DNA of 64,000 bases, from IMG/VR virus record IMGVR_UViG_3300031555_004891. One strand, written 5' to 3'. The notes under the pieces are model-generated. The model was not told the DNA's origin. It made no database searches and saw only the letters and a list, made by a program, of their open reading frames with translations. Below, piece by piece: positions 618 through 61,982 of this stretch. Source of the stretch: a virus. Its lineage: Duplodnaviria; Caudoviricetes. Position 1 is the stretch's first letter. Each line of letters begins with the position of its first letter. A program made the position numbers and the translations under genes.

Positions 618-2522
618 ATGGCAACAAAAATCGAATATACAAATACAAATATATACGAACAATACGAGCCTATAATCTGGAAGGATAACGAAACGCCATT
701 AAACTCTGAAAACTTAAATCATATTGAGCAGGGTATTTCTAACGTTTCTAAAGTTGTTCTTAATTATTATAGTAGAACTGTTGATCTAGAATCAGAAGTC
801 TTTGTAGTAGTAGAAGAAAATGGTTTATTGCAACCTAAATCAGAAATTAAATTATTAAGATCTGATGTTACTGCTCTTCAAAAAGATTTAGGCGAAGTTC
901 ATAACGCACTTTTAGTAGAAATGATAGATTCGAAAGGTAATGCTGAAATGGTGCAGCTCGGCGAAGCTGTTAGAGAATTACTTATCGAATTTGCTAGCAT
1001 TTTAACTGAGTTAGATAGAATTGAAGAGGTTAAAGGTCTTCAAGATGAAATAAAAAACACAACTGCAGGTTTAACAGAAGAAGAAATAATCAGAAGAAAC
1101 GCTGATAACGAAATTAACGCTAAAATAGCTGAATTAGAAGCAGCTTTAGGTACTTCTGGAACTAATACAACTGCTAAATTTGCGGAAATAGAGGAAGCTT
1201 ATAAAGCAGCAGATGCAGAGTTATCTAAGAAAGTTTAGGATGAAATTCAACCAAAAATTGATCAAGTAAGTGCTGATGTTGCTACATTAAGTACCACTCA
1301 CGAAGCAGATAAAACAGCTCAAGCTTCTATTGATGCTACTCAAGATAGTAAAATAGGTGTATTAGAAACATCAATAAAAACTAAAGCAGATAAAGCTACA
1401 ACTTTAGCTGGTTATGGAATTACAGATGCATATACATAGGTAGAAGTAAATAGCTTTATCGATATTATTAATGAAAATTTAATAGATAATTACGCTACAA
1501 AAGAAAATGTAAGCGAAGAAATAGATAAAATAGATTTAAGTCCATACGCTACTAAAGAAGCTTTAACTTTAAGTACTACCATAACAGAAGATTTAGTTAC
1601 TACTACTGGTGTTGGAACGCTTCCAGCAGGTACAAATCTTAAAGGTATGACTTTGATAGATGTAATTAAAAAATTACTTTGTCAAAATTTAGGTGTAGCT
1701 ACTTATCCAACTTTCACAGAGCCTTCTATAAATGTTGTCTTAGATGAAACAACAGCCATATATGGTACATCTTTCACCACTACAGGTCATGTCACAGCTA
1801 ATAGAGGTTTAATTAATCCAGCATATTCTGTTGGTGGAAGCGCTTATAGAGCTGGTGAAGTTATTAAATATACTGTTAACGGTGAAGATCAAGTTTCTAA
1901 CGAACTAACTTATGATTTCAATCTTACTATTGATAAAGTCGAAGCTGGAATAAATGAAGTCAAAGTATCTGTTACGTTTGCTCAAGGTCCTCAGCCATTA
2001 GATAGTAATGGTGTTAATTATGATAGTCCATATCCAGAAACAACTATAGAAGAAATTTTAACAGTAAATGGTTTAGTTATGGCTTATAGTGGGTCGAGTG
2101 GAGATTCTGTAAGTCAAAATTCTACAGAAATTATAACTGATGATACTGCTTATAATAAATCTGGTTTCTTCGAAGTTGCTGACGAATCTGGTAATGTAAC
2201 AGAATCTGGTTATCAAAGCGTTGTTCCTGCTGTAGAAGTAGATCCTGAAACTTATGCACCTTTAGCTGGATAGGTTGTATTAATCCCAGAATCTCAAAAG
2301 CTTATTGGAATTAAGTATTGGGATGAATTAGGTCAAGCATGGAGCTGGTATGGTAATATATCTGCAGAAGATTCTTTGACTCACGAATGGAAAAATGTTG
2401 GAACATAGGAAATAGAAATAACAGAAGGAACTAGTGTTACTTATACAAAATATGAATTTGATATATCAGATCCATACGCTGTATTTGGCGCAGAATCTTA
2501 CTGGAGATTTGTAATAGAATAA
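618..2522 (+). CDS. Tail fibre / coiled-coil structural protein (634 aa, TAG=Gln)
   Basis: ORFs 618-1238 and 1647-2273 share a frame and are interrupted only by TAG; first TAA is at 2520-2522. The region between them encodes the common fibre motif KADKATTLAGYGITDAYT(TAG)VEV. N-terminal WKDNETPLNSENLNHIEQGI is typical of tail proteins. Confidence 0.8.
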
Positions 2523-2536
2523 GGAGAATTATATAG

Positions 2537-4606
2537 ATGGCTATAAATACAGCTAAAGGTTCGATGACTCAATATGCTTATACTAAAGCTGGTCCTTTCG
2601 ATTCTAAAATGTTAGTTAAAACAAAAGCTGAATTAACGCAAGCAGCTACCTGGATTCCTCAAGGTGGGTCTATGCCAGTCCATTATGCTGGAATGATTGT
2701 TTCAGTTAATGCTGATACTGTTACTGAGAATAATGGTATTTATATTCTTAAAAATGCAGCTTTTAGTAATGAGAGCAATTGGGTAAAATTATGCGATTTA
2801 GATGCTTTAGATGCTTTAAAAGCAGAATTAGAAGAAAAAATCGCAAACGAAGCTGGTCAAAAAGGTGATCAAGGTGATCCTGGTAAATCAGCTTACCAAA
2901 TATGGGTAGAAGCTGGAAATGAAGGCAATGAAGAAGCATTTTTAGCTAGTTTAATCGGTGCACAAGGCCCTCAAGGTGAAACAGGACCTCAAGGCGAACA
3001 AGGCCCTCAAGGTGTGCAAGGTGAGCAAGGTATTCAAGGTGAAACAGGACCAACAGGTCCAACTGGACCTCAAGGCCCTAAAGGTGATACTGGTGCAACT
3101 GGACCTCAAGGTGATATTGGTCCTACAGGTCCTCAAGGTCCTACTGGTGACAAAGGTGAAAAGGGTGAACCTGGCGTATCTAGCATTAAATTATCGGATA
3201 TAAAATCAGATTGGTCTACTGTTATTGCTGGAGATATTTATTTAACCCAAAAAGTTAACGAATTTACAACATTAACTGGTGAGCAAAACGCAGTTGGTGT
3301 TATGGTTATCGTTAGAGCAATTGATGCTGATAATCAAGCTAATTCTCAAGTTGATTATATCGGTAAACTTACTGGTGAGCAAGGTCCTAAAGGTGATAAA
3401 GGCGATAAGGGTGATATAGGCCCTCAAGGTCCTACTGGCGCTCAAGGTCCTAAGGGTGAACAAGGAACAGGTGTTAATATAAAAGCATCAGAAACTGATT
3501 GTACTGAACTTGGTGATGCCTATATTGATTCCGAAGGTAATATCCAAATTGTAACATCTGTTAGCCCTAAATATTTCACAAATGGTGGTCAAGTTAAAGG
3601 TCCTAAAGGCGATAAGGGTGATAAAGGTGATAAAGGCGACACTGGTGCACAAGGCCCCACTGGTCCTGCAGGAAGTGACGCAACAGTTACAAAAGAAGCA
3701 GTAGAAAATGTTTTAACTGGAATTATCACAACTCACGAACATTATGATGATAAAATTAAATTATCAGCTGATATTTGGACTGATAAGACTATTGGTCATA
3801 TAGAAGGTACAGCTAACGCACCTAAGAAAGTTGCTAGTAAAGATGATACCTTAAAAACATTATTTACTAACATATTTGGTACTGTAGAAGATGATAGTAC
3901 TGATTTGGTGCATGCACCAACTATAACTAAAGTTTCTATTGGAAGTTCTTCTTATGAGTATGGTACTAAATTAACAACCTTACCAGTAACTATTAGCAAA
4001 AAATCAGGTTATTATGAGTATGGACCTACTGTTGCTGATCCTAGCTGGACTTTCAGCGGTACTGTAACTGGTTTTTCTGGAGCAACTTTTGATGGTTCAA
4101 AAATAACATTAAATGGCAACTTTGTTGTTGGTCAAACTTCTTCTTTAAAGTTGGATGTTTCTGGATCTTATACATACCTTAGCACAATAAAGACTGCTAC
4201 AACAAAGATGGGTAATGCTACTGATCAAAAACTTGTATCAGGCACTACTAGTGGATCAGGAACATTTAATCCTACAGGTGTTAAATATGTTTACTGGGCT
4301 ACATCAACAACAACTGCAACACCAACTTCTTGGAAAAAATACAGTACTGGTACAACATCAATAACAGATTTACAATTATCATGTAAAGCTAATGAATATA
4401 TTTGGGTGGCTTGCACAGATAATAAAACTAACTTCTATGCATGGAACGATGCTAGCGGTAAGTATAATACAGATCCATTACCTACAACAAAAACTGGTAC
4501 AGCATCTATAGTAAATGCACAGGAAGCTTCTGTTAGTGGATATTATTTATATCGTACAACAAACGCTATGCTTCAAGCAGTAGATACTAAATTTAAGTTA
4601 GCATAA
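2537..4606 (+). CDS. Collagen-like (Gly-X-Y) tail fibre protein
   Basis: Several GPQGEQ/GDKGDK triplet blocks, the KSAYQIWVEAGNEGNEEAFLASL motif, and a Thr/Ser-rich C-terminus. AAGGAG RBS. Confidence 0.85.
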   Translation: MAINTAKGSMTQYAYTKAGPFDSKMLVKTKAELTQAATWIPQGGSMPVHYAGMIVSVNADTVTENNGIYILKNAAFSNESNWVKLCDLDALDALKAELEEKIANEAGQKGDQGDPGKSAYQIWVEAGNEGNEEAFLASLIGAQGPQGETGPQGEQGPQGVQGEQGIQGETGPTGPTGPQGPKGDTGATGPQGDIGPTGPQGPTGDKGEKGEPGVSSIKLSDIKSDWSTVIAGDIYLTQKVNEFTTLTGEQNAVGVMVIVRAIDADNQANSQVDYIGKLTGEQGPKGDKGDKGDIGPQGPTGAQGPKGEQGTGVNIKASETDCTELGDAYIDSEGNIQIVTSVSPKYFTNGGQVKGPKGDKGDKGDKGDTGAQGPTGPAGSDATVTKEAVENVLTGIITTHEHYDDKIKLSADIWTDKTIGHIEGTANAPKKVASKDDTLKTLFTNIFGTVEDDSTDLVHAPTITKVSIGSSSYEYGTKLTTLPVTISKKSGYYEYGPTVADPSWTFSGTVTGFSGATFDGSKITLNGNFVVGQTSSLKLDVSGSYTYLSTIKTATTKMGNATDQKLVSGTTSGSGTFNPTGVKYVYWATSTTTATPTSWKKYSTGTTSITDLQLSCKANEYIWVACTDNKTNFYAWNDASGKYNTDPLPTTKTGTASIVNAQEASVSGYYLYRTTNAMLQAVDTKFKLA
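2957..3175 (+). repeat. Collagen Gly-X-Y coding repeats (GGNCCTCAAGGT-like units)
   Basis: Imperfect 9-nt periodic repeats; further blocks near 3374-3470 and 3598-3672. Confidence 0.8.
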
Positions 4607-4619
4607 GGAGAAATAAGAA

Positions 4620-5609: not shown

Positions 5610-5638
5610 AAACCTGTATAATATTATGCAGATACTGT

Positions 5639-5672
5639 AAGCAAGCAGAAATTTCTGCTTGCTTTTCTTTTT
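5639..5672 (+). terminator. Inverted repeat / intrinsic terminator
   Basis: AAGCAAGCAGAAA-TTTCTGCTTGCTT followed by a T-run. Confidence 0.65.
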
Positions 5673-5685
5673 ACTGGGAGGTTAT

Positions 5686-6906: not shown

Positions 6907-8892
6907 ATGAGAATTATTGTTTATACAATTATGAAAAATGAGTTAAAAAACATAGAATCATGGCTCGAAAACATAAAAGATGCTGATGGAATCTATGTTC
7001 TAGATACTGGCTCAACAGATGGTAGCTATGAAAAAATGCTTGAAATGAAAGCTATGTATCCACAACTGCATGTTGAACAGAATATTTATGATGAGTTCCG
7101 ATTCGATACCGCTAGAAATGATAACTTATCTATGGTTCCAAATATGGATGATGTGATATGCTGGACTATAGATCTAGATGAAAGATTCTGTAATGATTGG
7201 TATAATAAGACTAAAAAAGCTGTTGAGGATAATCCTGGTTTTTATAAACTAACTTATTGGTATGCTTGCAGACATGATGATTACGGAAATGTAACTGATA
7301 AACATATTTATGATAAATGTCATCAAAGAATTGGTGCTAATTGGTCTAGACCTATACATGAAATTTTAACTTACGGTGACTATGAAAATATTTATGATAA
7401 GGGTAATATTATGATAGATGAGTCAGAAATATTTGTACATCACTATCAAAATCTTGAAACAGATAGGGGTCCTCAATATATTAATTTACTTAAATCTAGA
7501 ATAGAATCAGATAAATATGATATAGAAGCTATGCATCATCTAACAACAGAGTATACTAAATTAGGTGATGATTAGGCTTAGTTAGATACGTTATTACTAC
7601 AATACGCTCGAGGCGTAAGTTGTAAATGTGATTGGTTAGAATGTATTTGTGGTAATATAGCTGGATACTTCGAATCTAGAAATATCTCTGATGCTGAAAT
7701 GTGGTTTAAGAAAGCTATAGACTATAATCCAAATCTTATAACTTATTATATCAGATATTCTCAATATTTATCTTATAGAAATAGAGCAGATGAAGCTTTA
7801 AGAGTTTTAAAAAGCATACCCAGCACGGTTTATGTGCAAGAAGAATGGAAAGAAATTGAGGGGGCTCATACATGGCTTTTAGATGATAGTTACGGGCTAG
7901 CTTACTCATGGAAAGGTGATTATGAAACAGCATTAAATTGCTTTAGAAGCGCATATGAGAGAGCTATTGATGCAAACAGTGATTATGGTATTGAAATAAC
8001 ATCAGATCATGTACACTTTTGTGAAGATAAATTAGAAAAAATGGTTGATAAAGCTTATGTAACAATTCTGAGTGATAATTCTTATATAAATGGTGTTGTT
8101 GTTTTAGATAGAAGCTTGAAATGTGTAAATAGCAAGTATCCGTTATATTGTATAATTACAGAAGAAGTATCAGAAGAAAATAGAAAAGTATTATCTGACT
8201 TAAATATAAAAATAATAGAAAAAGATATACTCATACCTAAAGGTCAAACAGAAGACAATAAAGTTGATGTTGTAGAATCACTTTTGCAATCAGGTTGGCA
8301 CAAAGCTTTAGTTAAATTACATATATTTGGTTTAACTCAATTTAAAAAGATTGTTTATATAGATTCTGATATTATAGTTAAATAGAATATAGATGATCTT
8401 TTCGATAAGCCGCATATGACTGCTTGCTGGGATAGATTTGGTTTTAGCGATCAAGACATTTGTGATTCTAAATCTTTTAATAGTGGCTTATTGGTAGTAG
8501 AACCAAATTTAGAAGAATATATATCTATTATAAATTTCTTTAATAATTTTGAAAGCGATGGTGACTTAATACATGATCAGCGAGTTTTGCAAGCTTATTT
8601 TAAAGATTGGCCTGATATGTATTAGCTGCATTTAGATGCATGGTGGGCGCCATGGACTACTGCTTTCAATCCAAATTCAGATGAGTATTACTATATGCAG
8701 TCTAAAATGAAAACTATGCATATAATAGATACAAAACCATGGCGAGTTTCTAAGCAATATTTTTATAATTTATTTGCTGAGTACCCATGTTATGCTAAGC
8801 TGTGTTTAGATTATATAGATATCTTAAATTACACAATTACTGATTTACAACAAAAAGGAATAACTAGTTCAGATCTGAGAATTATAAATTAA
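6907..8892 (+). CDS. GT2-TPR-GT8 (glycogenin-like) fusion glycosyltransferase (661 aa, TAG=Gln)
   Basis: Four same-frame fragments joined through TAG. N-terminal GT2 (DTGSTDGS, FRFDTARN, IDLDE). C-terminal GT8 (KAYVT, KLHIFGLTQFKKIVYIDSDIIVK-Q-NIDDLF, FNSGLLV, DQRVL, KPW). Confidence 0.85.
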
Positions 8893-8908
8893 TTCTCAGA
8901 TTCTTTTT
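8874..8908 (+). terminator. Intrinsic terminator
   Basis: TCTGAGAATT...AATTCTCAGA followed by TTCTTTTT. Confidence 0.6.
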
Positions 8909-10974: not shown

Positions 10975-13059
10975 ATGACTAACACAGATTATCTAAATTT
11001 TGAAGAATTAATGGATTTAAATCCAGAAGAGCGAGAAGCTGCTTTAAAGATTCTTTCTGAGCTATCTGAAAAAGGAAAATCAGAATAGCTTGATGATTAT
11101 TTATATTCTGATTTCGATGAAATTCCTGTTGATATACACACTTTTTTGCATAATAAAACATATTTAGGTAATGCTTTATATGATCAGGAAGGAAGATTTA
11201 CACTTTTTCCTTATTGGGAAGAAAAATTAAAAGAAATATTTCCATCACCAACAGAAACGAGATATAATACAATTGTTTTTACCGGAGCTATTGGTCTAGG
11301 AAAATCTACTATAGCTGTTATATGCTTATTATATATGCTATATAGATTATTATGTTTAAAAGATCCATATTTATATTACGGTATGCAACCTATAGATAAG
11401 ATATCTATTTCTCTTATGAATATAACTTTAGAGAATGCAAAAGGTGTTGCTTTAGATAAAATGAACTAGATGATTTTATCTAGTCAATGGTTCTTAGCTC
11501 ACGGCGAAATGGCTGGTAAAACAAATTTAGAATTTAGACCAGAAAAACATATTGAGCTCATAACAGCATCTAGTAACAATCAAGTAATTGGTCGTGCTTT
11601 GTTTGCAAATTTTACAGATGAGGTTAACTTTGGTTTAACTAGTGATGTAGAAAAATTAAAGAAAAAATAGAAAACACTTATCTCGCAAGTTGACGCTCGT
11701 ATGAAATCAAGATTCTTGCGTGGTACATATCTTCCAACATTAAATATTATTGCATCTTCTAAGAATAGTGAGCAATCATTTTTAGAAGATTTTATATAGG
11801 CTAAAATTAAAAATGAGTCGAAAAACACTTTAATTGTTGATGAACCACAATGGGTAGTTGACTCTAGAAAAGACTCAAAAGAAAAATTTTGGGTAGCAGT
11901 TGGTAATAAATTCTTAGCCAATGAAGTTTTACCTGTAGATGCTTCTGAAACATTAGTTGATGAGTATAGATCTAAAGGCTATTCTATGCTCCATGTACCT
12001 ATTGGTTATTTAGAAAACTTTATCGAAAATCTTGATGGAGCATTGACTGATATAGCTGGTATAGCTACAGCATCATCTTTAAAATATATTTCTGGTATGA
12101 AATGGAATGAGTGTGTAGATTTAGAAATCAAAAATCCTTTCACAAAAGAAATTTTAGAAGTTGGTGATGCTAAAGATGATAAAGTTTAGTATTATGATTA
12201 TTTTGACTTATCTCAAGTCCCATCGGATTTGAAAAGTAGGCCTTTATATATACATCTCGATATGTCTATATCTGGAGACAAAACTGGTATAGCTGGTGTT
12301 TGGATTAAGAGAAAGACTTATGTATCAGAGGGTTAGGATTAGTCAAAATCTTTATATTATAGAGTAGCTTTTTCTTGTGCTATAAAAGCACCTAAAGGTG
12401 CTCAAATTTCTTTTGAAAAAAATAAGAAATTTATATATTGGCTCAAAGAAAACGGTTTTAATGTTAAAAAGATAACTAGCGATACTTTCTAGTCAGCACC
12501 TGTTTTACAGGATTTAAGAGCTCATGGTTTCGATTGTGAAACTCAATCTGTAGATAGGTTGACTGGCGAAGGTAAAAATAAAATTTGTGAGCCTTATCAT
12601 TATTTTAGATCTACAATATATGAAAATAGATTATAGGTATATAAGACTCAATTATTAACAGAAGAAGTTATTGGTCTTGAAAAATTATCTGATGGTCATG
12701 TAGATCATACAACCTCAGGTATAAATTCAAAAGATATCAGTGACGCAGTTTGCGGTGCTATTTTTGAAGCTAGTAAACATGGTGAGTAGTTTGCATTTGA
12801 TTATGGAGAAGATTTAGATGTAGTCAAAGATGTAAGCAAAACTGTTACTATACAATCGTAGACGCAAGAAATAAATGAAGCTTTTTAGCAAGAATTGTAG
12901 AAAATGTTTGACCCTATGGCTAGACATATTCAAAAGACTGAGCAAACTAAACCTGATAATACACAACAATAGAAAAAATCACCATACACAGATTTTGGAA
13001 ATGGTGCTGCACAACCTTATGCTCCGGCTTATATGGCTCAAGGCATAGTGTTGTTTTAA
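10975..13059 (+). CDS. terL: Terminase large subunit (694 aa, about 14 in-frame TAG=Gln)
   Basis: Walker A GAIGLGKS, Walker B FTDEVNF, nuclease motifs HLDMS..GDKTG, DTF-Q-S and VDH...SKDISDAV. Single frame up to TAA at 13057-13059. Confidence 0.9.
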
Positions 13060-47612: not shown

Positions 47613-47619
47613 AAAACAG

Positions 47620-47648
47620 TTGATTTATTAAAAAATAGCTTTTATAAT
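47620..47648 (+). promoter_or_regulatory. Sigma70-type promoter TTGATT-17-TATAAT
   Basis: Near-consensus boxes with 17-nt spacing, upstream of 47682. Confidence 0.7.
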
Positions 47649-47681
47649 ATAAACAAAAATAGTTCACATGGGAGATCGTGC

Positions 47682-48506: not shown

Positions 48507-48518
48507 TTTTTGACGAGT
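48491..48518 (+). terminator. Hairpin / terminator
   Basis: ACTCGTCAAAAA-TTGA-TTTTTGACGAGT. Confidence 0.6.
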
Positions 48519-48551
48519 CTGTTCTGTATAAGATGTAAAAGGAGTATTTAG

Positions 48552-49286
48552 ATGCTTATAGATTTGTTATCAACAGATAATCTTGCAAATTATAATGTTA
48601 AGATAGCTCAGGTAATGGGCTTGCATACCGCTATTTATGTTAATGAGCTTATAAATATAAGTAATAAAGCTACGTAGAAAAATAAGCTTATAGTAGATAA
48701 ATTTTTCATTTTAGATCGAAGATACATCACAAAGCGAACAACCTTAGAGTTGGAAGAGCAATTAGCTATAGATAATAAATTAATGAAAGTAGATGTTATG
48801 CAAAAACCTGCTGGTGAGGTAGATAACATCTATATTGATATAGATAAACTTGCTAGTATGATTTCATCAGATGATAAGCAATTTTTAGATTCTGTCACAA
48901 AAAAGACTAAAGTAAAAACAACAGTTTTACCTGGTATGAAACAGACAATAAAACAAAAGCAAGCGTCTGAGATGAAATCTTATATAACAGTTACTTTCCC
49001 AGAATTGAAAGAAGCTTTCGAAAGTTGGGTAGATGGGGTGCTTGCTAATCCGAAAGGTTTCTTATCTAAGAAAGCAGTGAGCTTATTTCAACGAGATGTT
49101 GATACTTTTGCTAATGGTGATTTAGATATAGCGCTTAAAGTTATTGAAATAGCTACAATAAATGGTTATAGAGACGCAAGCTGGGCTATAAATGTTTTTA
49201 ATAGAGATTATGCAAATAATTTCAGAAATAGATTTGTAAGTACAACTACTCAGAGACGAGCAGAAGTAGCTGATGAGGTGTTTTAA
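48552..49286 (+). CDS. Putative replication initiator / replisome organiser (244 aa, TAG=Gln)
   Basis: YNVKIAQVMGLHTAIYVNELI wHTH-type N-terminus; one TAG at 48675; directly upstream of the DnaC/DnaB/DnaG genes. Confidence 0.65.
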
Positions 49287-49960
49287 TGATTGAAAGCTGC
49301 TTATTTGCTGATAGATGTAATAAAATAGATTGTGATAAAGATTTTTGTGTTAAAAAGTTTAAGTTAGATTATCTTTTTGATCAAGCTTTATTATCAGAAA
49401 AACATAAGAAAGAGCTAGTTTTAAGAGTAGACGCAGATAAGAGAGATTTAGAAGCATTTAAATACTTAAAATCTATCCAAAATTCTGTAGAAAAATTTGT
49501 TGAAAATGGCGATAATCTATATATCCACTCATTGATAAGTGGTAATGGAAAAACTAGTTTTGCTATTAAAATATTAAAAGAATATTTTTATAGGATTTGG
49601 TCTAAATCAGATTTAAGATGTAGAGGTCTGTATATACATGTACCAAAATATCTTATTTCTTTGAAAGATAATATATCAGAAAAATCTGATTATGTTCAGC
49701 ATATTAAGAAAAATGCTTTAGATGCTGACTTAGTTATATTTGATGAGGTTGGTACAAAAAGCTTAACTTCTTTTGAATTTGAAAACATACTTACTATAAT
49801 AAACGCTAGATTAGATTATGGTAAAGCAAACATTTATACGTCTAACTTGACTAATGAAGAGCTTCTAGATAATTTAGGAAGCAGATTGTATAGTCGTATT
49901 GTGAACAACAGTAATGATGTTGTTTTTGTTGGTCAAGATAAGAGAGGATTATTTCAATGA
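49286..49960 (+). CDS. dnaC: DnaC/IstB-like helicase loader ATPase
   Basis: SGNGKTS, LVIFDEVG, IYTSNL, RLYSRI. Confidence 0.85.
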   Translation: MIESCLFADRCNKIDCDKDFCVKKFKLDYLFDQALLSEKHKKELVLRVDADKRDLEAFKYLKSIQNSVEKFVENGDNLYIHSLISGNGKTSFAIKILKEYFYRIWSKSDLRCRGLYIHVPKYLISLKDNISEKSDYVQHIKKNALDADLVIFDEVGTKSLTSFEFENILTIINARLDYGKANIYTSNLTNEELLDNLGSRLYSRIVNNSNDVVFVGQDKRGLFQ

Positions 49961-51234
49961 TACAATTACAAATGTTAAATTACCTGTTAAAGACCGGTGA
50001 TTCTTCTATTATAGTATTAAATAATTTAGATAAAACATTTTTTTCTGATTATCAGGAACACTTTGATTTTATAAATAACCATTTAAATACATATGGTAAA
50101 ATTCCAGATCAAATAACTTTCTTATCTAGATTTAGTGATTTTGATATAGTTGAAGTAAACGAATCTTCAAAATATTTGTTAGATGAGCTTTATAACGATA
50201 AAAACATGCGCTCTTTAGCAAAAACATTTAATCAGATAAAAGATTTGTTAAATGATAAGAAAGTCGATGAAGCTATGTCTTTATATATGAAAGCATCTGA
50301 AGAAATGACTCAAGGTATTCATCTAGATTCAGTTGATATCTTGAGAGATACATCTAGATATGATGCTTATATAGAGAGATCAGAAGATTTTGCTAAATAC
50401 TATGTTAAAACAGGCTTTAAAGAATTAGATGAAATAATCGGCGGCTGGGATAGACAAGAAGAATTAGCAACTATAATTGCACGTCCAAATGTAGGTAAGA
50501 GCTGGATATTACTTATAGTAGCTATTGCTGCAGCTAAGCAAGGTCTAACAGTAGGTTTATATTCAGGTGAAATGTCTGAAAGAAAAGTTGGCTATCGTGT
50601 AGACACATTAGTTTCACATTTATCAAATACTAAACTTATTCATGGTAATAGAGATATTCAAAATGAGTATAAGAGATTTTTAGATAGTTTATCAGAAGAA
50701 ATTCCTGGTAAAATAAAGGTAGTAACACCAACTATGCTGGGTGGTGCAGCCGGTGTAAATGCCTTAAAAGCTTTTATAGATAAAGAAAAACTTGATATTT
50801 TATGTATTGACCAACACTCATTATTGGAAGATGATAGACACGCAAAAGATCCAGTTACTAAAGCATCTAACATTTCTAGAGATCTCAAAAACTTGCAAGT
50901 CCTTAAGAAGATACCTATTATTGCTGTTTCTCAAGGTAATAGATCTATAAATGAGACTGGTCAACTGGGATTACAAAATATCGCACAATCAGATAGAATC
51001 GGTCAAGACTCAACTGTTGTATTAGGTTTAGATCAAAAAGATGGTGTTTTATCAGTACATTTACTTAAATCCAGAGATAGTGCTAACGGTAAGATTCTTA
51101 AGTATAATGTTAACTTTGATAAAGGTACGTTAGTTTATATTCCTAGCGAAGATGATGCAGCTGGTGGTAAATATTGCGAAGACTTAAATAATAGATACGA
51201 AGAAAGTCATGATATAGGGGAAGATGAGTTTTAA
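49957..51234 (+). CDS. dnaB: Replicative DnaB-like helicase
   Basis: TGFKELD, ARPNVGKS, YSGEM, AVSQGNR, IGQDS. Confidence 0.9.
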   Translation: MIQLQMLNYLLKTGDSSIIVLNNLDKTFFSDYQEHFDFINNHLNTYGKIPDQITFLSRFSDFDIVEVNESSKYLLDELYNDKNMRSLAKTFNQIKDLLNDKKVDEAMSLYMKASEEMTQGIHLDSVDILRDTSRYDAYIERSEDFAKYYVKTGFKELDEIIGGWDRQEELATIIARPNVGKSWILLIVAIAAAKQGLTVGLYSGEMSERKVGYRVDTLVSHLSNTKLIHGNRDIQNEYKRFLDSLSEEIPGKIKVVTPTMLGGAAGVNALKAFIDKEKLDILCIDQHSLLEDDRHAKDPVTKASNISRDLKNLQVLKKIPIIAVSQGNRSINETGQLGLQNIAQSDRIGQDSTVVLGLDQKDGVLSVHLLKSRDSANGKILKYNVNFDKGTLVYIPSEDDAAGGKYCEDLNNRYEESHDIGEDEF

Positions 51235-52172
51235 TGCAACTTATTATAGGTAACAAAGTAATAAACACACCTATAACAGATATACTTGAAACTTTAAGAA
51301 AGGAAACTGGTTACAGATATTTTCGAGAAATCAAATTAAAAGGAAATAATTATACTGTAACATGTCCTTTTCATAAGATGGGTCAGGAATCACACGCTAG
51401 TTGTCAAGTATTCTGCGACGAAGCTGATCCAAAAGTTGAGTATGGATATTTTCACTGCTTTACCTGCGGTGAGAATGCACATTTATATGATGTTGTAGCA
51501 CACTGCTTTAGTCAAAATGCAGACTTTGGTAAAGAATGGTTACTTGAAAGGTTCGGTAACACATTTATACAGTACGAAGAAACATTGACTGATATTATTC
51601 TTGATAAACCTAAAAAAACATTTTTAGATCCAAATATACTTGAGGAATATAATTATTATCACCCATATATGTGGAAAAGAAATCTTACAAAAGAAGTCGT
51701 AGATAAATTTCAAGTAGGTTTTGATCCAAAGACTCAATCTATAACATTTCCAGTTTGGGATCAGTTTAATAATTTAGTAATGGTGACTAAAAGGTCTGTA
51801 AATACAAAAAATTTCTTTATACCAGAAGATGTAGAGAAACCAGTTTATTTACTTAATTTTTTATTGCAAGAAAAACAAACAACAGCTTATATTTGTGAAA
51901 GTCAAATAAATGCTTTGACGCTTCAAGGTTGGGGGTATCCAGCTGTAGCATTATTTGGTACTGGATCAGAGCAACAAATGAAAATATTAAATAAATCTGG
52001 TATAAGACATTACTACTTATGTTTTGATGGTGATACGCCTGGTAATAAAGCTATAAATAGGTTTAAGAAAAATATAAGAAAAGATGTTTTAGTAGATGTT
52101 GTAAGAATACCTTTTGGAAAAGATGTCAACGATTTAACTGAAAAAGAATTTAAAAATTTAGAAATAATTTGA
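51234..52172 (+). CDS. dnaG: DNA primase (CHC2 zinc finger + Toprim)
   Basis: CPFH, HCFTC, ICES, CFDGDTPG, KDVND. Confidence 0.9.
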   Translation: MQLIIGNKVINTPITDILETLRKETGYRYFREIKLKGNNYTVTCPFHKMGQESHASCQVFCDEADPKVEYGYFHCFTCGENAHLYDVVAHCFSQNADFGKEWLLERFGNTFIQYEETLTDIILDKPKKTFLDPNILEEYNYYHPYMWKRNLTKEVVDKFQVGFDPKTQSITFPVWDQFNNLVMVTKRSVNTKNFFIPEDVEKPVYLLNFLLQEKQTTAYICESQINALTLQGWGYPAVALFGTGSEQQMKILNKSGIRHYYLCFDGDTPGNKAINRFKKNIRKDVLVDVVRIPFGKDVNDLTEKEFKNLEII

Positions 52173-52196
52173 CAAAAACTTAAATATTGATATAAT
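52169..52196 (+). promoter_or_regulatory. Sigma70-type promoter TTGACA-16-TATAAT
   Basis: Consensus -35 and -10 upstream of the SSB gene. Confidence 0.7.
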
Positions 52197-52252
52197 TAAG
52201 TTTGTATAAATAATTGAACTATAAAAAAGATATATAATTGGAGGATATTTTA

Positions 52253-53149
52253 ATGGCAAAAATGGATTGGAATACATACCAACAAAGAGCCGCTGCTATG
52301 GAAGCTGGACAACAAAGTGGTAATGGTCCTAGAGTTGGCTTTTTCGCTCTTAAAAATGATGGCGATAAAGCAGTAGTTAGAATTATGCATGATAGCCCAG
52401 AAGATTTTGATTTGGTAGCAGTGCACTCAGCAAACATTGATGGAAGATACAGAAACGTAAGCTGTCTTAGAGGTCCCAATGATCCTATGGATATGTGTCC
52501 TTTCTGTGATGCAGGTGAAAAGACCTATCTTAAGATTTATATTCACCTTATCGAATATACTAAAGACGAAAATAATCAGATTATTGCTACACCTAAGGTT
52601 TGGGAACGCACTGCATCTTATGCTAAAACTTTAGTTAATTACATGAACGAATATGGTCCCCTCTCTGATGTGATTTTTACAATTACTAGAAGCGGAGCAA
52701 AAGGTTCTAGAGATACTACATACTCTCTCATGTATGCACCTCCTCAAATTTATAGAGAAGATCTTTATGTTAAAGATACTACTCTTTTTGAAGGTTATCA
52801 AGCAACTGGTGCAGCTGTACTTGAAAAATCATATGAAGATATGCTTAAACTTCTTGATTCTCCAGCAGGACAAACTCCAGCTAATAATTATGTAGCTAAA
52901 GCAACAGCACAAGCAGCACCTAGACAAAATTATTCAGCACCGGCACCTGCAGCTAGACCTACTTATAACGAAGTTGTAAATGCAGCACCTGCAGCAGTAC
53001 CTCAATATGAAGCTCCTGCAGCACCTTCTACTCAAGAAGCACCTGCTAGAACTTATAGACAACCTACAGTTCCTGCAGAAACTAGACCTGCTTATAATGC
53101 ACCTGCAGCTGTAGATGGGTATCAAGCACGTCCTCGCAGAGTTTATTAA
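52253..53149 (+). CDS. Single-stranded DNA-binding protein (gp32-like)
   Basis: VRIM, H...C...CPFC zinc motif, FTITRSGAKG..TTY, Pro/Ala-rich tail; GGAGG RBS. Confidence 0.75.
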   Translation: MAKMDWNTYQQRAAAMEAGQQSGNGPRVGFFALKNDGDKAVVRIMHDSPEDFDLVAVHSANIDGRYRNVSCLRGPNDPMDMCPFCDAGEKTYLKIYIHLIEYTKDENNQIIATPKVWERTASYAKTLVNYMNEYGPLSDVIFTITRSGAKGSRDTTYSLMYAPPQIYREDLYVKDTTLFEGYQATGAAVLEKSYEDMLKLLDSPAGQTPANNYVAKATAQAAPRQNYSAPAPAARPTYNEVVNAAPAAVPQYEAPAAPSTQEAPARTYRQPTVPAETRPAYNAPAAVDGYQARPRRVY

Positions 53150-53173: not shown

Positions 53174-55924
53174 ATGGTAGATTCATTGTGGGGTGATGAT
53201 TTCATTATAAAGAAAACCCCTAAAGAAGCTAAAAAGATAATTAAAAAAATATCTGAGCCAAAAGATTCTTCTTCTGTTGTAAAAAAAGCCGTAAAGTCCA
53301 AAAAACTATCCGTCCATGAAAAGTTAGCTATTATTACCGAGAATGTTAAAAAGATTCTCGGTAGATACGCTGACAACACTCAAGTGATAAGGACACGGCA
53401 AGAGTTAACTGATTATATCGACATAGCTATAAAAAATAATGTAATTGCGGTCGATACTGAAACGAATAACAGTCTTGACCCCATCACATGTAAATTGATG
53501 GGTCCCTGTTTATATACACCAGGTTTAAAGAATGCTTATGTACCATTAAATCATGTTAACCCAGATACTTTAGAAAGATTTGATTGGCAATTAACGGAAG
53601 AAGATGTAAAAGAAGAATTAAGTAGACTTACAGATACTAAAATAATAATGCACAATGGTAAGTTCGACTATTCTGTAATAAAATGCACCACAGGTGTTGA
53701 GTTAAGCATTTATTGGGATACAATGATTGGTGCAAAAGTTTTAGATGAGAATGAGAGGTCAGCTGGTTTGAAACAGCAGTATATCGAAAAGATAGATCCA
53801 TCTATTGAAAAATACTCTATAGATCACTTATTTGAAGATATAGAGTATGCGATGGTTGACCCAGAAATATTTGCTTTATATGCTGCAACAGACTCTTATA
53901 TGACTTATAAGCTTTATGAGTGGCAAAAAGATAAATTTGAGATACCTGGTCACCAGCGTTTATATAGCCTTTTTAGAAATGTAGAGATTCCTGTAATAAT
54001 TCCTATAGCTGAAATGGAAATGACTGGTGTAGAAGTAGATCAAGAATATGCTGAGTTGTTAAGTAAAAAGTATCATAAGAAATTAGATACAATCGATCTT
54101 AAAATAGCTGCAGAGTTAGCTACATTAAAAGATAAAATAGCTGAGTGGCGTTTAACAGAAGATGCTAATTTCCACCCGATAGCAACAAAACCTAACAAAT
54201 ATGGTGAGTATTTAGAGCAAAAATCTAAATCAGAGCAATTAGAAGATCCTATAAACTTAGCCAGTCCAACACAGTTAGCTATATTATTCTATGATATATT
54301 AAAATGTCCACCTGTAGATAAAAAGAAACCTAGAGGAACAGGTGAAGCAGAATTAAAAGCTATAGAGCAGAAATTAAAACTTCCTATTTGTAGCCTTTTA
54401 GTAGAAAGACGTGAATGGGTAAAATTGATAACTACTTACATAGACGTAATTCCGGAACTAGCAAAAAGATGGCCTGATGGTAGAGTTCGTACTCACTTTA
54501 ACCAATACGGGGCAGCTACGGGTCGTATGAGTTCGAGTGATCCGCTGAACCTGTAGAATATACCATCACATAATAAAGAAATCCGTATGTTATTTAGAGC
54601 TGCTGATAATTGTGTATTAGTTGGTAGCGACTTCAGTTTATAAATCTGTTGGCTGAAGTAAAACTTACTTAAACGGGGAACTCTCATTGAGACAATCCCG
54701 TGCCAAATCAATCTTAAGATTGATAGTGCGTAGAGACTATCGAAAAGGTAGGCGTAAGCTGAGTAACTGAGTAGAGTAGGCTTCAAGCGAAGTCGAAACA
54801 GTAAGCAACTAAAAAGTTGAAGAGTTAGTCCGACACTTCTAGTGATAGAAGAGAGGTGTAGCGAGCCTCAAAACAAGAAGCAACAAGAACCTAGATTACT
54901 CTCACAATACTCAGGTGATGAGAATATGATTAATGCTTATAAAGCAGGTAAAGACCTTTATGCTACTATTGCCTGTGGTGTATATAAAAATACGTATTGG
55001 GATAACATGGAGCATTGGGAAGATGGATCACCTAATCCTGAAGGTAAGAAACGTAGAGGTAATTGTAAGAGCTTACTTTTGGGGATAATGTATGGACGTG
55101 GTGTAGCTTCTATAGCTGAACAAATTAAAGGTACAGTAGAAGAAGCACAAAAAATTATCGATGATTTTTACACTGGATTTCCAAAAGTAAAAGAATGGAC
55201 TGATAAAACTCAAGCAGATGCTAAAAAGACTGGTTATGTAGAAGATTTATGGGGTAGAAGACGTAGACTTACAGATCTTATGCTTCCTAAATATACTATT
55301 AAAGACCTTAATGCTGCTAAACTTGATTTTAATCCTATCTTACACGCAGAAGGAAAGTTCTCGAAAAAAGAAAATCCTTCTATACAGAAATATAAAGCAG
55401 CACTTGAAAAAGTTCGCGGTAGAAAAGAATATGAAAAGCTAAAAGAGCAAGCATTGAAAGAAAATATAGAATTGCATGATAACACAGGTTTTATAGCTCA
55501 GGCTGAGAGACAATGTGTTAATGCTAGAATTCAGGGTGGTGCTGCTTCCATGACTAAAGTAGCTGTTATAAAGCTGTATAATGATAAAATTCTCAGAGAT
55601 TTAGGATTTAAGTTAAATATAGCCGTGCATGATGAGTTAATTGGTGAGTGCCCTAAAGAAAATGCAGATGCAGTAGCTGATAGACTTTGTGCTATAATGA
55701 AAGGTGCTGCTGAAGACGTTTGTGATGTACCATTTAAATGTGACCCTACAGTTGAGCATTGTTGGTATTTCTCAGATTTCTGCGATACTGTTCAAAAAGA
55801 ATTTAAAGAAGTTTTGAAAAAGTATAATAATGATTGGAATTCAGCATTTAATTATATGGTAGAAACTCATGAAGAATCAACAATTGATCAATTACATGAG
55901 CTTTTAGATGAAATAGCTGTATAA
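53174..55924 (+). CDS. polA: Family A DNA polymerase, join(53174..54637,54881..55924), 835 aa, TAG=Gln
   Basis: Exonuclease motifs DTET, HNGKFD, YAATD. TGRMSSSDPLNL-Q(TAG)-NIP. Motif A DFS^QQEPR is restored on splicing; motif B KSLLLGIMYG; motif C VHDE. Confidence 0.92.
54638..54880 (+). mobile_element. Group I intron (IA-like, 243 nt, no ORF)
   Basis: The 5' exon ends in U and pairs with GCTGAAGT (54652-54659, P1). TGTTG pairs with 3' exon CAACA (P10). P3 CTTACT/AGTAAG, P7 GACTA/TAGTC, terminal G. An in-frame TAA is present if unspliced. Confidence 0.88.
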
Positions 55925-57482: not shown

Positions 57483-57513
57483 ATATGTATACTAATAAAA
57501 TGTGAGGTACCGC

Positions 57514-58818
57514 ATGTTTAAAGATTTTGTAGACTTATGCACTAAATTAGCTGGAACAACTAGTCGACTCAAGAAAGAAGAATACTTGAGAGAATATGAA
57601 AATAATGATTATGTAAAGAAATGCTTATATTTTAGATTTAACCCATACATCACTACAGGTATTTCTAAAAAGAAGATTTCTAAATTACAGCAATCATTTG
57701 AAGATAGAATTGTAGACCCTAATTATAATGTTTTAGATCTGCTGGATTATATTAAAGAGCATAATACAGGTAGAGATGTAGATTTGAGCAAGCTTGAGAG
57801 TTATGCTGAGATGAATTCGCCTTACGCTGATATTATTTATGGTTTAGTTTCAAAAGAATTGAATTTAGGTATTCAAGCAATCACACTTAATAAAGTTTAT
57901 GGTGATAATTTTGTTCCAACGTTTGATTTAATGTTAGCTATGAAATATTTCGATGATCCAGATAAATATCTTCCAGATGGTACAGAATTTGACATTACAG
58001 CAAAACTAGATGGCGTAAGATGTGTTTGCTTTTATGATACTGATTCTATTAAATTCTTTAGCCGTCAAGGTCAACCTATTTATGGCTTAAATCAATTGGA
58101 AGAAGCAGTCAGAGAAAACTTAACACCTGGGTATGTTTATGATGGTGAGCTTCTGTTAAATAGATCAGATCTACACAGTAAAGATTTGTATAGAGCAACA
58201 GTAAAAGTAACATCTGCTGATGCTGTAAAAGAAAATATAGTTTTCAATATTTTTGATAGACTTTCAATAGAAGAATTCAAAAGAGGCTATTCGGATAGTA
58301 TTTCTAGAGATAGAAAAGATGCTTTGCATGCAGAATTGCAGCGTAATAAATCAGAATTCTTAAAAGAAGTAGAAATTCTTTATAGAGGAACAGATAAGTC
58401 TAAAATTCAATATTGGTTGGATAAAATTACATCAGAAGGCGGCGAAGGTGTAATGCTCAACTTATGTAATAGTCCATATGAGTGTAAAAGAAGTAAAGTA
58501 ATTCTTAAAGTAAAGAAAATGCAATCCGCAGATTTAAAATGTATTGCAGTAGAAGAAGGTACTGGTCAAAATGTTGGTAGACTAGGTGCAGCTATTGTAC
58601 AACTTCCTGTAGAAGATAAAATCTATGAAGTAAGTGTTGGTTCCGGTTTCACATTCGAAGATCGAGAATACTTCTGGAATAATAGAGAAGAAATTGTCGG
58701 TAAAATTATCGAGGTACAGTATTTCGAGATAACGCAAAACCAGCAAGGCGGATATAGTTTGAGATTCCCTGTATTTAAAGCAGTAAGAAACGATAAAACA
58801 GAAGTATCTATGTTTTAA
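57514..58818 (+). CDS. lig: ATP-dependent DNA ligase
   Basis: KLDGVR, YDGEL, EGVML, LKVK, SLRFP. Confidence 0.92.
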   Translation: MFKDFVDLCTKLAGTTSRLKKEEYLREYENNDYVKKCLYFRFNPYITTGISKKKISKLQQSFEDRIVDPNYNVLDLLDYIKEHNTGRDVDLSKLESYAEMNSPYADIIYGLVSKELNLGIQAITLNKVYGDNFVPTFDLMLAMKYFDDPDKYLPDGTEFDITAKLDGVRCVCFYDTDSIKFFSRQGQPIYGLNQLEEAVRENLTPGYVYDGELLLNRSDLHSKDLYRATVKVTSADAVKENIVFNIFDRLSIEEFKRGYSDSISRDRKDALHAELQRNKSEFLKEVEILYRGTDKSKIQYWLDKITSEGGEGVMLNLCNSPYECKRSKVILKVKKMQSADLKCIAVEEGTGQNVGRLGAAIVQLPVEDKIYEVSVGSGFTFEDREYFWNNREEIVGKIIEVQYFEITQNQQGGYSLRFPVFKAVRNDKTEVSMF

Positions 58819-58827
58819 TTAAAAATA

Positions 58828-58882
58828 AAAAGATCAGCTATAACGTAAAATAGTTGATCTTTTCCCATATTTATTATATAAT
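58828..58882 (+). promoter_or_regulatory. Terminator hairpin fused to a sigma70-type promoter (TTGATC-17-TATAAT)
   Basis: AGATCAGCTAT/ATAGTTGATCT hairpin; -35 at 58854-58859, -10 at 58877-58882. Confidence 0.75.
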
Positions 58883-58916
58883 ATATGTGTAAATAAATAG
58901 AAGAGGTATTTTTGTT

Positions 58917-60356
58917 ATGTTGCTAGTAGATTATTATTTTTATATTATTAAAGTATGCTATAAAAATAAGTGTGTATTTAAGTTTGGCGAATCTAAAACT
59001 GATAGACCAAAAAAGCTTTTAAAAGAATATGAAAATAAAAAGAATGTAACTGCAAAACTTCTCTACACAGATACACTTCCAAATAATGGGTATAATAGAT
59101 TATCTGATAAAGTTATTCATAAATATATTTCTAAAATGTATGAAAAAGCTAATAAGTATGAGATTCAAGTAGAGTTGGGTACAACTGATGGAATAACTGA
59201 GTTTTTTATTTGCAAGATTGGAGAATCTGATGATAAACTAGTTGAAAACTTAAAAAATATTGTATATACTATTGATACTAATCATTATAAAATTGCAGTA
59301 GAGTATTTAGATAATATCGAAAAAATACATTTTCCTCAAAACCATCAGGTCTGCTTCTATTATACTGATGCGATGGAAAAATTAGGTAATTTTCAATTAT
59401 GTGATGAGAAAGATAAACTAATAGTACTTATCGGTCAATTTACACCACAATATATAAATAGATTTGCATTCAGAAATAAAATAATAATCTGGCAAGATTC
59501 TGGTGAGACAGAATTTGCTTATGAGGATTCGAGATGTAATCAAAACATCACTTACATTTCAGATTTGGAGACATTAATTAAGATGAATCAAGACAATAAA
59601 TTTAATTATGTTTTAAGCAACCCACCATACGAATTTGCAAGCCAAATAACAAAAGCTATAATTGATAATGTAAACTTTGATACTTTTGTTAATTTAATGC
59701 CATTAAGTGATTATAATAAAGATAGTTTGTATCGATATGTAAGCAAGTTTGAGTTGGTTGACCCTACTAAATTTAAAGATGCGAAAATCACTAAAAATTT
59801 AAACATAGCAGTTATTGAACCAGATATAGTAGATAAATATTCCGATAGAGAATCTTTTGAAATAGAATCTTTTGATCCTAAATTTAAGTTATTTTATCAA
59901 ATTAATACTAATAGAGAGCATTATTGTTTATCTAGCTTTGCTTATGCTTCTAAATTGAAGTTTCAACCTAATCCATATACTGATGTGTATTTAACATTAA
60001 GAACAATCTTTGATGGTGTACATAAAACTAATAACTGCGCTGATTATAAATGGAATATTGAAAAAATTACATCAAATACGTTGTTAATAAAGAATTTTGG
60101 CGGTGAAGATTGTTTGTGGGGTTCTATATTTAGATTTAAAACCGAAATAGAGCATAAAAATTTTTGTACCTGGTGGTATCACGGTAATTTAAGCCACAAG
60201 CTAATAAAAGGATTAAACAAGACTAGTGGCACTCCAAAAATTGCGTTACCTAGAATTGATTGGTCTCGAACAGATGTAGAATATACCGATGAATATGTTT
60301 TAGAACAAATGGGATTAAAATGGAATGAAAATAAAGATGGGGTAGAGAAATTATGA
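58917..60356 (+). CDS. Fusion of a GIY-YIG/T5orf172-like N-domain to an NPPY methyltransferase catalytic/TRD half
   Basis: YIIKV...FKFGES...TEFF N-terminus; FNYVLSNPPY; no recognisable SAM-binding motif I. Confidence 0.6.
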   Translation: MLLVDYYFYIIKVCYKNKCVFKFGESKTDRPKKLLKEYENKKNVTAKLLYTDTLPNNGYNRLSDKVIHKYISKMYEKANKYEIQVELGTTDGITEFFICKIGESDDKLVENLKNIVYTIDTNHYKIAVEYLDNIEKIHFPQNHQVCFYYTDAMEKLGNFQLCDEKDKLIVLIGQFTPQYINRFAFRNKIIIWQDSGETEFAYEDSRCNQNITYISDLETLIKMNQDNKFNYVLSNPPYEFASQITKAIIDNVNFDTFVNLMPLSDYNKDSLYRYVSKFELVDPTKFKDAKITKNLNIAVIEPDIVDKYSDRESFEIESFDPKFKLFYQINTNREHYCLSSFAYASKLKFQPNPYTDVYLTLRTIFDGVHKTNNCADYKWNIEKITSNTLLIKNFGGEDCLWGSIFRFKTEIEHKNFCTWWYHGNLSHKLIKGLNKTSGTPKIALPRIDWSRTDVEYTDEYVLEQMGLKWNENKDGVEKL

Positions 60357-61037: not shown

Positions 61038-61054
61038 GCAGAAGATATAGAGAA

Positions 61055-61270
61055 ATGAAAATATATAATATAGGAAATTATAGAGTACATCTCAGCAATA
61101 AGAAGAAGCCTGAGTCAAATTACAGCAAATTTATTGTTTATAAAAATGGGGTAAAAGGTGACCTAGATGGTGGCTACTTGAGATGGGAAAACGAAGACGT
61201 GATTGTTCCTAGATTAACAAAAGTATTAAAAGAATGGGATAACCTAGATGTTGGAAAAGAAAACATTTGA
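61055..61270 (+). CDS. Hypothetical protein
   Basis: 71 aa ORF within the operon. Confidence 0.5.
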   Translation: MKIYNIGNYRVHLSNKKKPESNYSKFIVYKNGVKGDLDGGYLRWENEDVIVPRLTKVLKEWDNLDVGKENI

Positions 61271-61982
61271 TTTAATTATAAGCAACCCACCTTATAAATA
61301 TGGGAATGAGGTTATTAAAAATACTTTATAGGTAACCGGAGAAAAAGCCGTTATACTAATGCCTGCTGCTAAATATAAAGCAGATAGGCTTTTCTCCCAT
61401 ATCGAGAATATTGAGTTAGCTGATAAAAATTTCTTTAAAGATAAGAAGCAGGATATTAAACCTGATTTAAGCATAGCTGTATGTGTAGCTGATAGTAATG
61501 ATGAAATAACTTTTGAAAAGGTTATGGATTCTCTATTACCAGAAGATATAGCGCAATTTTTGGACTTAAATAGAAAATTGAGTAAGAAATATGATCGATT
61601 AACTTATATGAAAAGTATGAGAGAAAAAGTTTCTGGAAATAAAGAATATTTTATGGTTCCTTATTGGCAGCATGTTGGTTGTGCTAGATCTGATAAAAGC
61701 GTAACTAGAAAATATAATTTTGGCGATACAGATGCGATAAATAAAATATTAAACAGTGATATGTGCTATAGCGTTTTGAAATTTCCTTCTTCTGCTTATT
61801 GGAATAATTTCTTTAATTGGTATTATAAAAATGATATTCAAGATTATATTTTATTAAACTGCTGTGATTTATTATATCCTAGTTACATATGGTTCCCGCA
61901 GATAGATTTTTCTATAGATAGAGATTATGCAAATTTAACTTTTCTTCAACTTTTAGAAATAATGTTTTCGGAAATAAAGTAA
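61248..61982 (+). CDS. Adenine methyltransferase catalytic/TRD half (NPPY; 244 aa, TAG=Gln)
   Basis: Read-through of TAG 61329-61331 gives N-terminal MLEKKTFDLIISNPPY. The C-terminus resembles that of 58917. Confidence 0.75.

Follow-up and report, generated by a model that had tools for sequence, protein, structure and literature searches.

Genetic code 15, under which TAG is read as glutamine, has been predicted in phages from 2014 onwards. Clades assigned to this code include the Lak, crAss-like, Jade, Sapphire, Agate, Garnet, Amethyst and Topaz phages (hereafter the Borges clades; 10.1101/2021.08.26.457843). Recoding in these phages is concentrated in structural and lysis genes, clades mix codes 11, 15 and 4, and 26-71% of the genes, as clade means, carry in-frame stops (10.1101/2021.08.26.457843). 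Suppressor tRNAs occur in 35-40% of the recoded genomes while genes for release factors or synthetases are rare, and clades reading TAG as Gln or TGA as Trp are predicted to have standard-code Firmicutes and Bacteroidetes as hosts (10.1101/2021.08.26.457843). For crAss-like phages, code 15 has been proven by proteomics (PMC9523058). Phage phAss-1 (proposed Phassvirus) is likewise TAG-recoded and has several tRNA-Sup(CUA) genes, is without a synthetase of its own and has been proposed to infect a Clostridia-type host (PMC10607447). Here, we analysed a stretch of 64,000 nucleotides (nt) with 31% G+C from the IMG/VR record IMGVR_UViG_3300031555_004891, referred to as the window. It belongs to a tailed phage of ~259 kb with a T4-type capsid module and a contractile tail, that is a large gut-type bacteriophage which is neither Lak nor crAss-like, and in which TAG appears to be decoded as glutamine as well. 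TAG-to-Gln recoding is already a well-described phage strategy, to which this phage adds an example.

A previous sequence-only reading of the window had proposed genome-wide recoding of TAG to Gln, noting that same-frame fragments join only across TAG and that the genes end in TAA or TGA. Indeed, under the standard code (code 11) the window contains 63 open reading frames (ORFs) of at least 100 amino acids (aa), many of which are same-frame neighbours, and calling genes with TAG as sense resolved it into 56 tightly packed genes, all located on the plus strand. None of them contains an in-frame TAA or TGA, that is, only TAG interrupts genes. The count of 97 in-frame TAG codons (Table 1) was taken after moving the start of the capsid gene to ATG 17338. 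Translation of the 56 genes terminates at TAA (47 genes) or TGA (9 genes) and never at TAG, as had been claimed. This tally is partly circular because read-through would merely extend any TAG-terminated gene. However, the final 13 codons of the genes contain ~4 TAGs as compared to ~3.7 expected at random placement, so there is no sign of hidden TAG stops. For comparison, 9-13% of the genes terminate at TAG in five standard-code relatives.

The coding density comparison that had been suggested as a check gave a clear result. ORFs of at least 200 aa cover 0.62 of the window under code 11 and 0.84 when TAG is read as Gln, as compared to 0.63 when TGA is read as Trp. To extend the comparison, we used the sequence obtained by following the genome outward from the window by stepwise exact-protein matching, with chain overlaps that are 100% identical over at least 10 kb. 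At the two ends, segment L049 corresponds to window positions 1-10612 and segment L108 to positions 61208-64000, both with 100% identity, and ~129 kb of the ~259-kb genome could be read in this way. Across these 129 kb, reading TAG as Gln raised the coding density from 0.777 to 0.922 in greedy gene calls, whereas the same caller yielded densities of 0.87-0.92 under code 11 for the five standard-code relatives and a shift of at most 0.014 upon reading TAG as Gln. The 129-kb stretch thus gains more than the 5% in density that the Borges criterion demands of contigs of at least 100 kb. Pfam domains extend over TAG sites in the portal, the protease, the glycosyltransferase family 8 (GT8) protein, the SNF2 helicase and the DNA polymerase PolA. 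Taken together, these data confirm that the observed TAG recoding is real and far beyond chance.

To which amino acid TAG corresponds was addressed with a comparison set comprising 45 loci around IMG/VR capsid homologs and the complete records of the five standard-code relatives. Seventy TAG sites of the window lie inside tblastn alignments to standard-code genomes with homology continuous in frame. At these sites the modal residue is Gln in 37%, Lys in 11%, Glu in 10% and Ser in 9% of the cases, which closely resembles the profile at the CAA/CAG codons of the window (Gln 38%, Lys 10%, Glu 10%, Ser 6%), whereas the profiles at Glu, Lys, Tyr, Trp, Leu and Ser sites are clearly unlike it. Homolog alignment, another check that had been called for, therefore agrees with Gln. 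In a likelihood test based on a substitution table derived from the same alignments, Gln was ahead of the runner-up Lys by 28 natural-log units when each site had one vote and by 207 units when pooled; the site-weighted log-likelihoods are -174 for Gln, -202 for Lys, -218 for Glu and -226 for Ser. Tyr, Trp, Leu, Ser, Lys and Glu are rejected as meanings of TAG on these likelihoods. The closest relative, phage G001 (72% capsid identity), is itself TAG-recoded, and the two genomes exchange TAG mostly with the regular Gln codons: TAG codons of the window are found opposite CAA 16 times and opposite TAG 9 times, and those of G001 opposite CAA 15 times, TAG 9 times and CAG 4 times.

All four motifs in which the sequence-only reading had placed TAG on conserved Gln residues are present, namely PLNL-TAG-NIP (nt 54554), DTF-TAG-S (12490), VK-TAG-NIDDLF (8383) and TSDV-TAG-A-TAG-LD (37193/37199). 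The polymerase TAG aligns to the Gln within SSSDPNLQNIP of Taq Pol I and to Gln in all five relatives, and at the terminase TAG in DTF-TAG-S, 15 of 16 standard-code homologs have Gln, which bears out the claim for both enzymes. For TSDV-TAG-A-TAG-LD, located in a 150-aa gene that had been named a spike, the motif stands but conservation of the Gln residues rests on one homolog per site. In strains that are 96-97% identical, TAG is retained at 16 of 17 and at 2 of 2 sites. Thus, four independent lines of evidence support the assignment of TAG to Gln (genetic code 15), Gln being by far the likeliest meaning of this codon; the homolog profile, the likelihoods, the exchange with G001, the Gln in LQNIP and two tRNA-CUA genes agree on it.

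These tRNA genes are located outside the window, in which ARAGORN detected no tRNA gene, in keeping with the earlier statement that no suppressor tRNA is visible there. The proposed search of the remaining genome was successful: 55,236 nt downstream of the window end, it revealed two tRNA-CUA genes in tandem (Table 1). They scored 56.2 bits (tRNA 1) and 33.1 bits (tRNA 2) with the Rfam tRNA model, which has a gathering score of 29. The pair is identical in three further Joint Genome Institute (JGI) assemblies, and G001 as well as L094, which represents a third lineage, also possess a tandem tRNA-CUA pair. In E. coli, the acceptor determinants of tRNA-Gln are a weak 1:72 pair, G2:C71, G3:C70 and G73, together with G10. 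In both phage tRNAs, U1 and G73 are present, the CCA end is encoded and the 1:72 pair is either weak or mismatched; tRNA 1 displays U1:A72 and G2:U71, and tRNA 2 a U1/C72 mismatch followed by G2:C71 and G3:C70. The acceptor start UGCC is common to tRNA 1 and the tRNA-Gln(UUG) genes of G001. These features point to glutamine-type acceptor ends and a glutamine identity of both tRNA-CUAs. In addition, tRNA 1 carries an extra arm of 18 nt, which measures 18-24 nt across the lineages (relatives at L068:1501-1591 and L094:9801-9897). With the sequence CUCUGAA (CUCUGAC in L094, CUUUGAA in G001), the loop of the extra-arm hairpin looks like a copied anticodon loop of tRNA-Gln (CUG or UUG). The T-loop of tRNA 2 is atypical. 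A CTGTATATA-type motif is found 35-50 nt upstream of tRNA 1 in all three lineages (L112; L094:9750-9800; L068:1450-1500).

Theta ribozymes, which are hepatitis delta virus (HDV)-like, have been published beside phage suppressor tRNAs, and none was detected around the tRNA-CUA pair by Rfam. Segment L151 extends the sequence by ~9 kb and reaches the beginning of a tRNA cluster (Met, Leu, His, Met), with no tRNA-Gln or further suppressor tRNA in it. Searching metagenomes with the anticodon-arm 20-mer of the second tRNA-CUA of G001 returned three unrelated contigs and missed the phage studied here, because the anticodon stem of its second tRNA is not the same; homology starting from the ORF beside the G001 tRNAs led to G001-like phages and to L094, and likewise missed this genome. 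The search for a release factor or glutaminyl-tRNA synthetase (GlnRS) that had also been suggested could be answered in part: the complete G001 record contains no RF-1 domain and no class Ic (Gln/Glu) synthetase, and the listed Pfam hits of the 129 kb, i.e. half of the genome, include neither a release factor nor a synthetase. As neither was seen, we infer that the tRNAs are charged by host enzymes.

Usage of TAG differs sharply between gene classes. Overall, the 129 kb contain 154 TAG as compared to 1151 CAA/CAG codons (11.8%), and TAG occurs in 55 of 158 genes. Within the window, TAG accounts for 17.8% of the Gln codons in the structural block (before 44203) and for 3.1% in the replication block (from 47055), corresponding to an odds ratio of 6.7 (Fisher p=6e-7). 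In window numbering, the genes with start positions between 70 and 80 kb (gyrase, clamp loader, SbcD) have 105 Gln codons, none of which is TAG, and the TAG-rich outliers of the replication region are small genes past the window. Hence, 'genome-wide' recoding holds as regards the meaning of TAG, but its use is uneven. Sigma-70-like promoters at 46993, 47620, 52169, 57454 and 58854 lie in intergenic gaps and precede the TAG-free genes that start at 47055, 47682, 52238, 57502 and 58917, respectively. Even among late genes, usage varies: the terminase gene is enriched for TAG (14 of 35 Gln codons, p=0.0017 within the late block), and the tail fibre and capsid genes are depleted (Table 1).

The base following TAG is biased as well. 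In the 129 kb, it is A in 50% and T in 12% of the cases, as compared to 33% and 24%, respectively, after CAA/CAG (p=1e-4). An A following UAG is known from work in E. coli to favour amber suppression over termination by release factor 1 (RF1). TAGs are somewhat commoner in the first third of genes. From the 14 TAGs in a single gene and a tandem TAG-TAG we infer that decoding is efficient late in infection. As a separate observation, the sequence GCTAAATT is not enriched overall (11 copies versus 7.8 expected), 9 of the 11 copies are on the plus strand, and 7 fall into the few intergenic gaps, immediately before late genes or operons (Table 1). Strand and placement make it a candidate for a phage late promoter.

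For the proteins at the two window ends, 40 and 44 blocks are listed among public assemblies, including a 258,782-bp JGI contig (Ga0187908_10000014). Aligned public copies are 96-100% identical to the window and keep the TAG sites. In the public gene calls, genes appear whole in some pipelines (634, 661 and 2396 aa) and in pieces in others. A nucleotide search of a phage record collection with the window gave no match; likewise, an exact 43-mer from the window had no match in the IMG/VR collection searched, where the best capsid relative is 72% identical. The capsid relatives for which at least 10 kb of sequence is available are mostly standard-code. The phage studied here and G001 gain coding density when TAG is read as Gln, and in seven loci (L012, L013, L019, L022, L026, L033 and L039) ORF coverage rises by 0.18-0.31 with TGA taken as sense (Trp). 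In a quick maximum-likelihood capsid tree with midpoint root only, the two TAG genomes form one clade and the TGA genomes another, each with a Shimodaira-Hasegawa-like approximate likelihood ratio test (SH-aLRT) value of 99, amid standard-code rows. Thus, a single capsid family holds standard-code, TAG-recoded and TGA-recoded (code 4-like) lineages.

On this basis we consider it very likely that the phage decodes UAG as Gln while probably infecting a standard-code host, and that its suppressor tRNAs open the late genes. The early and replication genes could be translated by host ribosomes under the standard code, because they contain few or no TAGs and have host-type promoters. The two tandem tRNA-CUAs, presumably charged with Gln by the host via GlnRS or via the route of glutamyl-tRNA synthetase (GluRS) and GatCAB, would then outcompete RF1 at UAG. 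Only at this stage would the TAG-containing genes yield full-length products, namely the terminase and portal, the proteins of baseplate and tail, the homing endonucleases and also the polymerase, in which TAG occurs once. The switch, which may serve a regulatory purpose, would thereby be set by when the tRNAs are expressed. The partition of TAG between early and late genes fits the published model of a code switch gating late genes. Several points weigh against this scenario. So far, the assignment of TAG to Gln in this phage is deduced from sequence. The long extra arm of tRNA 1 together with G73 would, in E. coli, also suit seryl-tRNA synthetase. Moreover, a terminator-like 12-bp hairpin with a T-run (L112:20189-20218) abuts the 5' end of tRNA 1, and no canonical promoter was found for the tRNA-CUA pair. 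Finally, with 129 of ~259 kb read, there is room for release factors or synthetases elsewhere in the genome. An unlikely extension of the scenario would be that the extra arm of tRNA 1 acts as a decoy letting the Gln-charging enzyme of the host accept a CUA tRNA, and that the TAG in LQNIP, the TAG-laden homing endonucleases and an intein put replication and mobile elements behind the same switch.

Other explanations for the TAG codons have to be weighed. It appears very improbable that TAG is sense but specifies a residue other than Gln, be it Ser, Lys, Glu, Tyr or pyrrolysine, the latter being the label that ARAGORN gives to any CUA tRNA. The class-II-like extra arm of tRNA 1 and its G73 could suit Ser, and Lys and Glu are the next commonest residues at TAG-aligned positions; however, the log-likelihoods favour Gln over all three, the profile at TAG agrees with the one at true Gln codons and is quite unlike that of Tyr, Trp and Leu sites, the LQNIP Gln of PolA is invariant, and TAG exchanges mostly with CAA/CAG in the comparison with G001. 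It is likewise very improbable that TAG is a leaky stop, with low-level read-through producing little of the extended proteins and the short fragments predicted under code 11 making up the bulk of the products. TAG is indeed avoided in the genes for abundant proteins (capsid, sheath, tail fibre) as if its decoding were costly or incomplete, and it probably does terminate translation early in infection. Yet, essential single-copy enzymes are interrupted in their catalytic cores, i.e. PolA at LQNIP and the terminase by its 14 TAGs, and a tandem TAG-TAG occurs at 39011. At 50% read-through per site, 14 sites would leave less than 0.01% full-length terminase. In addition, two dedicated tRNA-CUA genes are kept in three lineages.

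The idea that the host itself uses code 15 and is simply mirrored by the phage, with no code switch taking place, is highly improbable, even though evidence on the host is limited to capsid similarity with Firmicute phages. TAG is avoided in early and replication genes and in those preceded by sigma-70-like promoters, an avoidance that would serve no purpose in a host reading TAG as Gln; the phage carries its own suppressor tRNAs, and its sister lineages are standard-code or TGA-recoded. Moreover, the known clades with TAG read as Gln or TGA read as Trp are predicted on standard-code Firmicutes and Bacteroidetes (10.1101/2021.08.26.457843). A practically negligible chance is left for decay or artefact, that is a degenerate or defective phage, assembly errors or chimeric contigs. 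Its only attraction is the fragmented look of the genes under code 11, and it is already contradicted by the data: TAG alone interrupts genes, never TAA or TGA, the public copies with 96-100% identity keep the TAG sites, and homology continues in frame across 70 sites. Decoding of UAG as Gln through the phage-encoded tRNA pair therefore remains the preferred explanation.

Table 1. Coordinates of TAG-bearing and TAG-free genes, candidate signals and tRNA genes. Positions are in window numbering unless a segment is named.
Feature	Position	Strand	Observation
First to last TAG-bearing gene	618..61982	+	97 in-frame TAGs in 31 of the 56 window genes
GCTAAATT, intergenic copies	203, 8921, 8992, 10931, 15724, 19288, 42516	+	
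Collagen-like tail fibre	2537..4606	+	33 Gln codons, none of them TAG; significant depletion among late genes, p=0.0015
GT2/TPR/GT8 glycosyltransferase	6907..8892	+	4 TAGs, including VK-TAG-NIDDLF at 8383
Terminase large subunit-like	10975..13059	+	weak PHROG match; TAG-richest gene, 14 TAG versus 21 CAA/CAG
T4-type portal (Pfam Portal_T4)	13073..14989	+	2 in-frame TAGs; E=1e-38
Prohead protease (Peptidase_S77)	15777..17318	+	1 in-frame TAG; E=3e-11
Gp23-type major capsid protein	17338..18675	+	no TAG among 17 Gln codons, depleted; E=1.5e-32
Tail sheath	27470..29374	+	no TAG among 10 Gln codons; alone not significant
1338-aa structural protein	37622..41638	+	6 TAGs, including tandem TAG-TAG at 39011-39016
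SNF2-type helicase with LAGLIDADG-type insertion	44203..46965	+	7 TAGs, 3 of them within the insertion
Replication genes (DnaB-like helicase, primase, others)	47055..53149	+	2 TAGs in 7 genes
Family A DNA polymerase, first part	53174..54643	+	single TAG, 54554-54556, on the LQNIP Gln
DNA ligase (ATP-dependent) and next gene	57502..60356	+	TAG-free; sigma-70-like promoters at 57454 and 58854
tRNA-CUA 1	L112:20224-20314 (119236-119326)		
tRNA-CUA 2	L112:20319-20396		

The window genes were named from Pfam and PHROGs. The Portal_T4, Peptidase_S77 and Gp23 domains follow each other in the order of a T4-type (gp20/gp21/gp23) head module. For the capsid gene, an upstream TTG at 17257, which would add four N-terminal TAGs, was rejected as an artefact of ORF calling, the real start being ATG 17338. 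The nearest cultured capsid proteins are those of Listeria phage LIS04, the Bacillus phages SP-15 and HSE3 and a Streptococcus phage. As their identity is only ~32%, they indicate a shared head module and not membership in the Straboviridae. Given this capsid kinship with Firmicute phages, a Firmicute host is likely, though unproven.

Several genes appear to harbour insertions. The LAGLIDADG-type insertion of the SNF2 helicase, with a Pfam match at aa 340-388 and TAGs at 44758, 45418 and 45427, looks like an intein. The family A polymerase spans two ORFs (53174-54643 and 54842-55924) that are ~200 nt apart; the match to the Pfam profile is interrupted at position 160, and ...VGSDFS, with which the first part closes, lies inside motif A, so that a short ORF-less intron likely splits the gene. 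The gene for the anaerobic ribonucleotide reductase NrdD (L110:15627-18925, ~95.7-99.0 kb) consists of parts encoding 427 and 329 aa with a GIY-YIG endonuclease ORF in between, resembling an intron, and because of this split a homology search for full-length NrdD missed the phage. The pattern D-x-TAG-Ala-TAG-Leu-Asp recurs in two unrelated genes, encoding the glycosyltransferase (7573-7581) and the 150-aa protein (37193-37201). The phage further encodes a Thg1-like tRNA-His guanylyltransferase (L111:17949-18731) and a peptide deformylase (L109:18714-19352), and relatives have a homolog of ribosomal protein S21 near the suppressor tRNAs (L094:12945-13202). These three proteins, all related to translation, might bear on the code switch.

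How does the phage compare to recoded systems described before? With the Borges clades it shares in-frame TAGs mainly in structural and late genes, tRNA-CUA genes, a density gain of more than 5% and clade-mates using codes 11, 15 and 4, and with 35% TAG-bearing genes it falls within their range. It differs in that no release factor 2 or synthetase was seen and in having two structurally unusual tandem tRNA-CUAs. In size (within the Jade/Sapphire range), mixture of codes and likely Firmicute host it is consistent with the Jade, Sapphire and Agate phages. The crAss-like phages make the same reassignment, in late genes and on standard-code hosts (PMC9523058). However, they are podovirus-like and infect Bacteroidota, in contrast to the T4-type capsid, contractile tail and Firmicute-phage capsid kinship of the phage studied here, and their code 15 has peptide proof (PMC9523058), whereas recoding in this phage is deduced from sequence. 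TAG recoding, several tRNA-CUAs and Gln at conserved TerL positions are also features of phAss-1 (PMC10607447), the genome of which is smaller with 136 kb as compared to ~259 kb.

A further parallel is provided by the supE-type suppressor of E. coli, a tRNA-Gln that reads UAG through a CUA anticodon and nevertheless continues to be charged with Gln. The phage tRNAs similarly appear to combine a Gln-type body, presumably charged accordingly, with a CUA anticodon, but they have diverged, one having the 18-nt extra arm and the other the atypical T-loop, and in this phage suppression has to be efficient enough for ribosomes to get past 14 sites of a single gene. The more unusual element of its recoding lies in how the tRNA pair is built.

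For annotation, the choice of the code is consequential: under the standard code, about one seventh of the coding capacity of the genome is lost and 31 of the 56 window genes are truncated or split, and therefore code 15 is needed to annotate this phage. Within its capsid family, it provides a well-resolved example of standard, TAG-recoded and TGA-recoded lineages existing side by side. Thus, with its own suppressor tRNA pair and the sharp split in TAG usage between early and late genes, the phage may represent a convenient system for testing whether recoding times late gene expression.

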